Below are positions 1,592-4,297 of a stretch of DNA of 33,642 nt, piece after piece (the stretch's first letter is position 1; the number at the start of each line of letters is the position of its first letter). This DNA comes from Chrysochromulina tobinii (taxonomy: Eukaryota), in the NCBI GenBank assembly GCA_001275005.1, contig JWZX01002533.1, forward strand, positions 1-33,642. The letters run 5' to 3'. The translations under genes and the position numbers were made by a program. The notes beneath the pieces were generated by a model. That model worked only from the letters and a program-made list of their open reading frames with translations, was not told the origin of the DNA and did not search any database.

Positions 1592-1965
1592 AATTTGAAT
1601 CGACGGGACGCCGTTTCGACCCTCGCTATTCGCGCCATGATAGATGATTCGCGCACACGAGTCACCCACAACCGACAACGACACTCTCGCCACGCAGATC
1701 AAAGTTCATCTCCTGTCACCAGCCGCACGTTACATCATACACCCGCGCGCCGCAGCGGAAGTGCACCCCATGGAGTGCACCTGGCCATTGGTCGTCGGGA
1801 CTAATGGTCGAGCGTCGATGGAAGGTGTGAGTGGACACCTTCTGCCGCGCCGCCCCAGCTGTGGAAAATCCCCGGCGGTGCAACACTGCAACGCCCCCCC
1901 CTCCGCCCCTCGCGTTGACGCGCCCGCTTTGGCGCGGCGCGCACATGTCGGCGCTCTGGTAGCGA

Positions 1966-2045
1966 ACGACGCGTTTAGGCGGCGACGCCCGACACGACGC
2001 ACTTCGGCGGCGACGCCCGACACGACGCGTTTAGGCGGCGACGCC
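1966..2045. repeat. 28-bp tandem repeat (about 3 copies) spanning the PDX stop codon and 3' UTR
   Basis: ACGACGCGTTTAGGCGGCGACGCCCGAC-like units start at 1966, 1994 and 2022. The last unit contains the stop codon (tta at 2031-2033). Confidence 0.85.
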
Positions 2046-3749
2046 GGGGTCGACGCCGACACGTCCCTTGAGGGTGAGCTTGTCGGTCACGTAGCTGCCG
2101 GGCTCATTCTCAAGCAGGCCGACCATCGCCTTGCCCAGCCCCGTCGAGACACGCGCCACAGTGAGCGGGTTCTGGTAGTGCGTGCACGCGTTGACCATCG
2201 CGCGCGCGCGCTGGGCCGGGTTCTCGCCCTTGAAGATGCCGCTGCCCACGAAGACGCCATCGCAGCCGAGCTCCATGAGCAAGGCCACATCCGCCGGTGT
2301 GGCCAGGCCGCCGGCAGCAAAGGTGACCACTGGTAAGCGGCCCGCGTCCTTTGTCTGCTGCACCAGCTCAAACGGGACGCGCAGCTCCTTGGCGTAGGCA
2401 AAGAGCTCGTCGTCGCGCATCGTGCTCAGCTTGCGGATCTCGGAGAAGACGGCGCGCGCGTGGCGCACGGCCTGGATCACGTTGCCGGTGCCGGCATTGC
2501 CCTTGAGACGAATCATAGCGGCCCCCTCGGAGATCCGGCGAAGTGCCTCGCCCAGGTCCTGCGCGCCGCAGACGAAGGGGATGCCGAAGCTGCGCTTGTC
2601 GATGTGGTGCGCCTCGTCCGCCGCGGTGAGCACCTCGGACTCGTCAATGCAGTCGACGTCGAGCGCCTCGAGAATCTTGGCCTCGTAAAAGTGGCCGATC
2701 CGGCTCTTGGCCATCACGGGGATCGAGCACGAGTTCATCACATCGATGATCATGGCCGGGTCGGACGAGCGCGCGACGCCGCCGTCGGCCTTGATGTCCG
2801 CCGGGATGCGCTCGAGCGCCATCACCGCCACGGCGCCAGCAGCCTCGGCGATGCGCGCCTGGTGGCCGTCGACGACATCCATGATCACGCCACCCTTTTG
2901 GAAGACCGCGAAGGCGCGCTTGGCGGCGGTTGAACCGTAGCCCATGCCGTGCGCGGGCGCCGCGATCCAGGGCGCCGCGACGCTGAAGTCCGGCACCGCC
3001 GCCACCTTGGACACCTCCTTGACCTGGCACACGTCCTTGAGGAACAGCTCGAGCCATGAGTCATCGGACGAGATTTCAGGATGGAAGCACGTCGCCATGA
3101 GCTTGTTCTGGCGGACGGCGACGACGGCGCCGTTGTCGCCGAGCTCGGGCACCTCGTCGTCGGCCGCGACTTGCGCGAGGATCTCAACGCCGTTGCGCAC
3201 CTTGGTCACCGCCGGCGCGCGAATGAAGTACGCCTTGTCGCCGCAGTTGGCCGCGCTGTTGGAGACCTCCATCGGACGGAAAGCCGACTTGGACTGGCGG
3301 CCGAAGGCGTTGCGCTTGACGGAGATGTCGAGGCCGCCGAGGAGCGGCTGCGCGGCACCGTCGTCGAGGTCCTGCGCCAACAGGATCAGGCCCGCGCACA
3401 CGCCCCACGCGGGCTTGCTCTTCACGAACTTCTGCAACGGCTCCAGCAGCTTGGCGTCGACGAGGCCGTACCCGATGGCGGTGCTCTCGCCGCCCGGAAG
3501 AATGATCGCGTCCACCGTTGCGAGCTCCTTGGGCGTGCGCACCTCGACGCCCTCGACGCCCTGGTAGCGCGCAAGCGCCTGCATGTGCTCTGCGAAGCCA
3601 CCCTGAATGGCAAGGACGCCAACCTTGAAGGGCGCGCCGGCGGACGCATGCACGGCGGCGCAGCGGGCGGCGGCGGCGGCCGGGCGCGCGGCCGGGGCGA
3701 TCGTGTACGCCTCGACGGCGACGGTGATGAACAGCAGCCGGCTCAGCAT
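2031..3749 (-). CDS. PDX2-PDX1: Pyridoxal 5'-phosphate synthase, fused glutaminase (Pdx2/PdxT) and synthase (Pdx1/PdxS), with N-terminal signal and transit-like peptide; 572 aa, intronless
   Basis: Pdx2 motifs: [29 protein letters not shown] (catalytic Cys), RNAFGRQ, FIRAP, FHPE (His/Glu). Pdx1 motifs: [64 protein letters not shown] at 3749 ([19 protein letters not shown]); the ORF track start at 3827 is non-ATG. Confidence 0.95.
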
Positions 3750-4003
3750 TGCGTCTTGAGGAAGGGGGACAAAAATCGACGTGTCATCCCGATCGGCGAC
3801 TTTCCAAAGACGCTTCGCGGAATTCAACGCGTCAGATTACGTCAAGTCAAGTCAAGACAGATATGTCATGTGACGCACTCGGAATCGAAGAAGGTGCGGG
3901 GACGCCGGGGAGCCAACCCAGATGCCGCAACGTCGGATAAGTTACGAAACGAAACCTCCCAGGAACGTATTACGAACGCCGAAGACGTGTGTGCACCTCC
4001 ATC
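3750..4003. promoter_or_regulatory. Putative bidirectional promoter (254 bp) between PDX2-PDX1 and the small membrane protein gene; contains (TCAAG)3 at 3842-3856
   Basis: Divergent ATGs at 3749 (-) and 4004 (+); the interval is less GC-rich than the flanking CDSs. Confidence 0.5.
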
Positions 4004-4297
4004 ATGGAGGCCGTCCGCAGCGCCATCGCCTGGCAGGAGCGGGTCAAGCACCGCATCCACAACTTCCGAATGCCGATCAAGAGCAAACGCGTGCTCTTCC
4101 TCGTGCAATGCACCTATTTTGCGGTGCCGCTCGCGATCGGGTATGGGCTGATGAAGGTGACCGTGCCGGACGCGGAGACGATGCGCGGCAAGCTCAAGCT
4201 GCCCACGCCCGAGGAGCAGGCCCAGATCGATGCGCATAAGCGCAAGCTTCAGGCGGAGATGGACGCGGCGCGGCTGGCACGCGAGGCGAGGCTATAG
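4004..4297 (+). CDS. Small single-pass membrane protein of unknown function (97 aa)
   Basis: ATG 4004 to TAG 4297 with strong GC3 codon bias. Basic amphipathic N-terminus, hydrophobic segment VLFLVQCTYFAVPLAIGYGLM, charged coiled-coil-like C-terminus. Confidence 0.75.
   Translation: MEAVRSAIAWQERVKHRIHNFRMPIKSKRVLFLVQCTYFAVPLAIGYGLMKVTVPDAETMRGKLKLPTPEEQAQIDAHKRKLQAEMDAARLAREARL

Follow-up and report, generated by a model that had tools for sequence, protein, structure and literature searches.

A widespread Pdx2–Pdx1 fusion gene of the haptophyte Chrysochromulina tobinii carries a predicted plastid-type leader

Both subunits of the vitamin B6 (pyridoxal 5′-phosphate, PLP) synthase are encoded by one uninterrupted gene in Chrysochromulina tobinii. 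The window, that is, the whole 33,642-nucleotide stretch of contig JWZX01002533.1 analyzed here, contains at positions 2031–3749 on the minus strand a single intron-free frame of 572 amino acids without internal stops, running from an ATG at 3749 to a TAA at 2031–2033. It consists of a leader, a Pdx2 domain, a linker, a Pdx1 domain, and a tail, with both domains recognized by Pfam and NCBIfam. GC content at third codon positions is 0.97 in the leader, 0.90 in Pdx2, 0.97 in the linker, 0.90 in Pdx1, and 0.85 in the tail, so codon bias is uniform along the frame, in agreement with an initial annotation made from the sequence alone. An upstream TTG start at 3827 was rejected, as it belongs to the bacterial code and has no RNA cover. 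A Pfam scan of 15 window proteins found ABC-2, Myb, HMG-box, PH-TPR, and DnaJ domains in neighboring frames, which indicates that the window is eukaryotic DNA, and the closest named relatives of the fusion protein are prymnesiophyte haptophytes. By eye, about three imperfect copies of a unit of about 29 bases overlap the 3′ end of the gene, stop codon included (window about 1965–2046), and short (GTCAA)n runs occur in the intergenic sequence on both sides of it (about 1556–1580 and 3840–3856). A divergently oriented 102-amino-acid frame (3989–4297, plus strand) has no Pfam match and is covered by an RNA contig (3986–4365).

Public sequencing runs show that the fused frame is present in RNA libraries. 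Eighteen runs match half or more of the sampled words, and 14 of these are recorded as RNA; we aligned four of the RNA runs to the window. In 4/4 runs a single metatranscriptome contig crosses the linker (2934–3029) with 0 differing letters and 0 gaps. One contig spans the whole frame, or almost the whole of it, in three runs (1947–3752, 1909–3728, and 1949–3728), and the fourth run covers it with two (1909–3072 and 3060–3737). The longest contig stops 3 bases above the ATG, and upstream positions 3762–3949, the flank that serves as a silent control, have zero depth in all four. Contigs of this kind carry no strand information and could derive from DNA; those found here fit one unspliced message with the leader in it. 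All 14 RNA runs have the same year and library type and may represent one campaign.

An assembly or gene-calling artefact joining two neighboring genes is refuted by the RNA contigs and by the recurrence of the fusion, and we give it virtually no chance. Such joins do exist: 35/120 long PdxT-containing matches also carry a bacterial-type PdxS. However, all 35 have the S-then-T order of the operon, whereas the C. tobinii fusion has the reverse order, and uniform codon bias, bridging RNA contigs, and recurrence in over 100 clusters of genomic, transcriptomic, and metagenomic origin also argue against an artefact. The fusion gene is real, expressed, and conserved. As for the bacterial proteins, 34/35 are single-member clusters, and many have a garbled, frameshift-like junction; most likely they are joined operons, with rare true fusions possible among the few that have clean junctions. 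Proteins of this kind probably account for the bacterial members of the top ESM Atlas cluster (0.95; SOR_SNZ 81%, SNO 74%; mostly Bacteria), which had hinted at bacterial fusions. That candidate was rejected, with no fusion among the best 80 prokaryotic loci.

Domain profiles recover a complete Pdx2 followed by a complete Pdx1 in one polypeptide, as the initial annotation had claimed. The Pdx2/PdxT glutaminase domain (residues 41–240; 3030–3629, minus strand), of the PF01174 family, matches Pfam SNO at residues 45–239 (E 8e-45) and NCBIfam PdxT at 42–237 (TIGR03800, 159.3 bits, cut-off 105.55), and contains a PGGES motif. The Pdx1/PdxS synthase domain (residues 273–545; 2115–2933, minus strand) matches SOR_SNZ at 275–479 (E 9e-98; PF01680, 326.5 bits, cut-off 27) and NCBIfam PdxS at 271–545; it scores 447.7 bits against PRK04180 (cut-off 395) and 429.4 bits against TIGR00343, slightly below the cut-off of 438.45. 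Between them lies a Pro/Ala-rich linker of 32 amino acids with an APW motif (residues 241–272; 2934–3029, minus strand), close to the 30 or so first estimated. Residues 546–572 and the stop codon (2031–2114, minus strand) form a C-terminal tail.

Catalytic and assembly residues are nearly invariant in an alignment of 92 full-length fusions. The Cys118-His223-Glu225 triad, already recognized as intact in the C. tobinii sequence, is present in 92/92, as are Gly87 and Glu88. In the Pdx1 half, Asp291, Lys348, and Lys416 are each found in all 92 fusions, as are Arg350, His353, and Glu356, the RHE set of ring formation, and Arg404 and Arg405, which together with Glu401, present in 90, make up the ERR set of the second phosphate site. 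The Plasmodium counterparts of the first three residues are given as D26/K83/K151 in PMC2266796, which describes the DKK and ERR sets as needed for activity and the RHE set for ring assembly. The position equivalent to Thermotoga R131 is Gln in C. tobinii and varies among fusions (K 51, Q 36, R 4, E 1). Translation of one chain is close to certain, and on the strength of residue conservation the fused enzyme is very probably active.

Loss of one conserved residue may weigh against the predicted activity through an effect on rate. The initial annotation noted that the usual KGE(A/P)GTG motif reads KGNAGTG in C. tobinii; the variant is indeed present (residues 416–422; 2484–2504, minus strand), with Asn418 in place of the Glu of stand-alone Pdx1, and it is no quirk of one gene. 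Position 418, two residues behind the swinging lysine, is Asn in 80, Asp in 10, and His in 2 of the 92 fusions, whereas it is Glu in 95/95 stand-alone Pdx1 sequences. The KGE(A/P)GTG consensus is therefore broken in all 92 aligned fusions, while the Lys and all Gly and Thr positions are retained. Fused and stand-alone proteins differ systematically at 14 Pdx1 and 5 Pdx2 positions, among which 418 is the cleanest, making the change a signature of the entire fused clade among the sequences aligned. The papers cited here give no catalytic role to the Glu of KGE.

Structure prediction is consistent with docking of the glutaminase onto its own synthase. An AlphaFold2 model has a mean pLDDT of 86.8 and a pTM of 0.87, with an ordered linker (block means of pLDDT 92–95 over residues 241–270) and disorder at both ends (residues 1–34 and 543–572, pLDDT <50 over the latter). 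The Pdx1 half forms a (beta/alpha)8 barrel that superposes on Arabidopsis PDX1 chains with an rmsd of 1.0–1.2 Å and a TM-score of 0.96–0.97. The 16-residue segment first described as alphaN-like is in place, with a helix modeled at residues 274–282. Docking of Pdx2 in cis is predicted by this model, which may draw on likeness to solved Pdx1–Pdx2 complexes, and none of the 48 matching PDB sequences is a chain covering both domains. The conserved interface residues further suggest assembly into a hexamer or dodecamer ring.

A quite improbable alternative is that the product is a polyprotein, cut in the linker after import into ordinary Pdx1 and Pdx2, or that Pdx2 docks in trans on a neighboring subunit. 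The distance from His223 to Asp291 varies among relatives (median 68, range 53–133), and the linker is poorly conserved outside haptophytes and dinoflagellates. However, the linker is modeled with high confidence within a two-domain model whose pTM is 0.87, subject to the same possible debt to solved complexes. The linker is also unlike a second transit peptide, and the ciliate and dinoflagellate copies are fused although they have no leader.

Fused genes are found well beyond C. tobinii. Among the best 120 matches from a search of 5.8 billion proteins, 117 have the Pdx2-then-Pdx1 order, with both domains near complete in 103, and the other three are Pdx1 alone. Named fusions come from the haptophytes Prymnesium parvum, Emiliania huxleyi, Scyphosphaera apsteinii, Phaeocystis antarctica, and Isochrysis galbana (partial), and outside haptophytes from Dinoflagellata sp. 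TGD and the ciliates Ichthyophthirius multifiliis and Tetrahymena utriculariae; most matches are unnamed. The initial annotation had set its claim against the fusion being common and already characterized. Common it is, being the form that the enzyme takes in the retrieved records of haptophytes, a dinoflagellate, and ciliates, and none of the titles and abstract openings covered describes a characterization of it. UniRef labels three fusions “pyridoxal 5′-phosphate synthase (glutamine hydrolyzing)”, that is, as whole PLP synthases, so the architecture was already visible in databases. Four fusions (P0102, P0107, P0109, and P0116) have an odd Asn/Ile/Lys-rich composition, some on contigs of 6–24 kb, and a viral origin is suspected; AT-rich P0109 has no relative in IMG/VR.

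In the best prokaryotic loci and in the viral candidates, the two genes are separate. Among the best 80 of at least 587 matching prokaryotic stretches, none is fused and pdxT lies behind pdxS in 61; three apparent T-then-S loci in the same 80 are an effect of stop-to-stop frames. In a 50% representative library, the best 150 matches include 11 T-then-S and 6 S-then-T proteins. Four apparent viral fusions were rejected because pdxT and pdxS are separate genes there. Two giant-virus bins (IMG/VR GVMAG; L081:5977-7429 and L083:5995-7478) carry separate, adjacent pdxT and pdxS genes with a KGEAGTG motif; their order is that of the fusion, they fall outside the fused clade in both trees, and they adjoin apparent sugar-modifying genes. 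These putatively viral contigs possibly encode a viral vitamin B6 pathway. Separately, PF01174 is joined to PF01259, a purine-pathway enzyme, in twelve proteins (P0344, P0362, P0529, P0533–P0540, and P0542), an independent second fusion of Pdx2; the named member is the fungal “ade1” of Savitreella phatthalungensis.

Phylogenies of each half, one of the checks proposed at the outset, place the fused sequences in one clade. In the Pdx1 tree, 39 fused halves are separated from 50 stand-alone sequences (100/99), a set with few named eukaryotes and one plant; in the Pdx2 tree, 41 fused halves are separated from 43 stand-alone sequences including plants, fungi, and bacteria (100/99). For these trees, 39 of the 92 aligned fusions were chosen so as to span the larger fusion tree. 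A tree on both halves, rooted on 11 unfused pairs, places ciliate copies early and groups haptophyte and dinoflagellate copies together (98/93), which suggests, on too few named rows for a firm conclusion, a possible transfer of the fusion from an alveolate to haptophytes. Leader-bearing copies form one clade on Pdx1 alone (99/89), with lower values on both halves (67/20). Two leaderless proteins with a 70-residue C-terminal tail (P0033 and P0037) branch beside or among the haptophyte copies, and perhaps represent a cytosolic paralogue or a nonphotosynthetic relative.

The more surprising part of the gene is its 40-amino-acid, plastid-type leader, which the initial annotation overlooked. Residues 1–40 extend ahead of the first Pdx2 strand and contain a cleavage-like VEA|YTIAP. 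We predict a signal peptide in residues 1–14, ending in VEA (3708–3749, minus strand; hydrophobic stretch, best 8-residue mean 3.05), and a transit-peptide-like stretch in residues 15–40 (3630–3707, minus strand), which starts with Tyr, is Ala/Pro-rich, has 2 Arg and no Asp or Glu, and is largely modeled as disordered (residues 1–34). Extensions of at least 25 amino acids are present in 31/92 fusions. Every named haptophyte copy of full length has one, whereas those of ciliates and the dinoflagellate begin 5–7 residues ahead of the first Pdx2 motif and lack a leader. The 31 leaders start with about 10 hydrophobic residues without charge, after which A/S/G|Y-T-L-P is frequent, and continue with an Ala/Pro/Ser-rich stretch. 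Residues 2–11 are 65% hydrophobic and 0.6% acidic; the stretch after the hydrophobic start has 8.8% Lys/Arg and 1.0% Asp/Glu, against 12.8% acidic residues in the mature protein. Three proteins next to the haptophyte group (P0048, P0055, and P0064) lack a transit stretch, so that their signal-like start is followed at once by the first Pdx2 strand.

This composition is likely that of the bipartite signals of complex red plastids. In diatoms and cryptophytes an aromatic first transit residue is reported to direct proteins to the stroma (PMC4494062 and PMC6105332), a rule whose tested hosts are those two groups and which may not be valid for haptophytes, and predictors based on this rule yield periplastid proteins as well, according to PMC5462543. 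The predicted +1 residue is Tyr in C. tobinii; among the 23 leaders with a site found, it is Tyr in 15, Leu in 4, Phe in 3, and Trp in 1. A home-made rule (signal, aromatic or Leu, and basic residues), which was devised after inspection of the leaders and is not a trained predictor, passes 23/31 leaders, 7/61 leaderless fusions, and 10/434 Met-started window frames. The seven leaderless passes arise because the first Pdx2 strand mimics a signal.

Considering these patterns, a location in the plastid stroma is likely, and we regard it as unlikely that an active fused synthase is instead led to the periplastid compartment, the ER lumen, the mitochondrion, or two compartments. In favor of a nonstromal location, 8/31 leaders, those of Emiliania and Scyphosphaera among them, fail the aromatic/Leu rule; in PMC4494062, some diatom proteins with a signal have a mitochondrial prediction as well; and the three proteins named above have a signal-like start but no transit stretch. 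Conversely, Tyr at the predicted +1 position here and in most leaders with a site favors the stroma. The mitochondrion in particular fits poorly, with the first 11 leader residues hydrophobic and nearly uncharged (1.9% Lys/Arg). Such a start is unlike a mitochondrial presequence.

It is also improbable that translation begins at a later Met and yields a cytosolic enzyme as in plants, with the leader unused or confined to a minor isoform. A public model of the C. tobinii fusion (P0127) does start at Met56, and a Met lies just before Pdx2 in 25/31 leader-bearing relatives, where it could give a cytosolic form; moreover, the de novo enzymes described in PMC6071262 are cytoplasmic. However, C. tobinii is among the 6 copies that lack such a Met. 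Its next Met comes only after the first Pdx2 strand and Gln49, which is invariant (92/92), so that the Met56 model omits both along with the leader (window 3584–3749, minus strand) and its product would be crippled. The leader also keeps its frame, a GC3 of 0.97, and its composition across relatives that are 65–82% identical, and an RNA contig extends 3 bases above the first ATG.

Together, our results are best read as an old protist fusion that was retargeted to the haptophyte plastid, and we consider it fairly probable that the gene encodes an active single-chain PLP synthase imported into that organelle. By conservation and analogy with the known enzyme, Pdx2 (C118-H223-E225) would free ammonia from glutamine, Pdx1 would bind pentose phosphate on K348, and K416 would carry the intermediate to a second site (R404/R405) where triose phosphate would complete PLP. 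The 32-residue linker is predicted to allow each Pdx2 to bind alphaN of the Pdx1 in the same chain, and a hexamer or dodecamer ring would still form, in which each Pdx1 holds a Pdx2 permanently, at 1:1. The signal peptide would be cut at VEA|Y, the Tyr-first transit peptide would lead to the stroma, and the leader would then be removed. The stroma is a supplier of pentose and triose phosphates.

The order of events can be read from the leaderless ciliate and dinoflagellate copies, which suggest that the fusion came first and the plastid leader later, in or near haptophytes. For a fused gene, one leader would suffice to carry both subunits through four membranes. If the fusion is older than the leader, however, single-leader import would be a later benefit and not the cause of the fusion. 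A bolder version, which we hold only tentatively, is that haptophytes synthesize B6 de novo in the plastid with a fusion that arose once in alveolate-like protists, came to haptophytes by lateral or endosymbiotic transfer, and gained a leader. It would be the first Pdx1/Pdx2 of an organelle and the first natural fusion of the two, with a permanently saturated 12-chain ring and a reshaped swinging-lysine loop.

If correct, this reading would provide natural exceptions to two settled features of Pdx1/Pdx2, namely that the subunits are separate and associate transiently, and that the enzyme is cytoplasmic. The tethered glutaminase would offer a wild-type, always-saturated complex for the study of ammonia transfer and glutaminase activation, where a stable Pdx1–Pdx2 complex is described in PMC11237949 as so far needing an inactivating Pdx2 mutation. 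A 2018 review (PMC6071262) treats the supply of PLP to plastids as unsolved, and haptophytes, which are major marine primary producers, may produce PLP within the plastid itself. As a rare shared character, the fusion also links haptophytes and alveolates, and a one-gene B6 pathway may serve biofortification.

Neither a natural Pdx2–Pdx1 fusion nor a plastid PLP synthase is described in the titles and abstract openings covered, a set that mostly excludes subscription journals. The words “fused” and “fusion” are absent from the 2018 review (PMC6071262), and a 2026 coccolithophore genome paper (PMC13518057) lists the host pdxS-pdxT pathway, with no mention of a Pdx fusion or a plastid site in its section 22 or in the passages on it in text and supplement. 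The main text of an ochrophyte and haptophyte plastid proteome study (PMC5462543) contains no “pyridox”; its supplements list plastid-targeted families that may include the fusion. An earlier passing mention, for example in ciliates, is quite possible, though the less likely case.

Compared with known systems, the fusion combines familiar parts in an unfamiliar arrangement. It has the same domains, tested catalytic and ring residues, and alphaN as the PLP synthases Pdx1/Pdx2 (PdxS/PdxT, SNZ/SNO) of Bacillus subtilis (2NV2), Staphylococcus aureus (8U7J), Arabidopsis (PDX1.3, 5LNU/5K2Z), and Plasmodium (4ADS), and its Pdx1 half is 60–68% identical to these solved chains (rmsd 0.9–1.5 Å). However, the canonical synthase of the DXP-independent pathway consists of two polypeptides, whereas the C. 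tobinii protein is one chain and has KGN, varying to KGD or KGH among its relatives, for KGE. Wild-type S. aureus Pdx2 is described as binding transiently and mostly below 1:1 (PMC11237949, which also states that Pdx1 needs the dodecamer), a step that a tether fixing 1:1 would remove. Among other fusions, His7 (HisH-HisF, PDB 1JVN) likewise places a class I glutaminase ahead of the (beta/alpha)8-barrel synthase to which it supplies ammonia; it matches the Pdx2 half weakly (E 8e-4) and is the next-best look-alike by features (0.79), but belongs to the histidine pathway and works without a ring. A panB-panC fusion reported from prymnesiophyte haptophytes in PMC13518057 similarly places a B-vitamin pathway in one gene in the same algal group, but for vitamin B5. 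Finally, described de novo enzymes are cytoplasmic, as given in PMC6071262 and for tobacco PDX2-GFP in PMC12052705, in contrast to the plastid-type leader found here. The fusion is thus widespread and its chemistry would be the known one, while its predicted plastid site would be an exception to the rule of the pathway.
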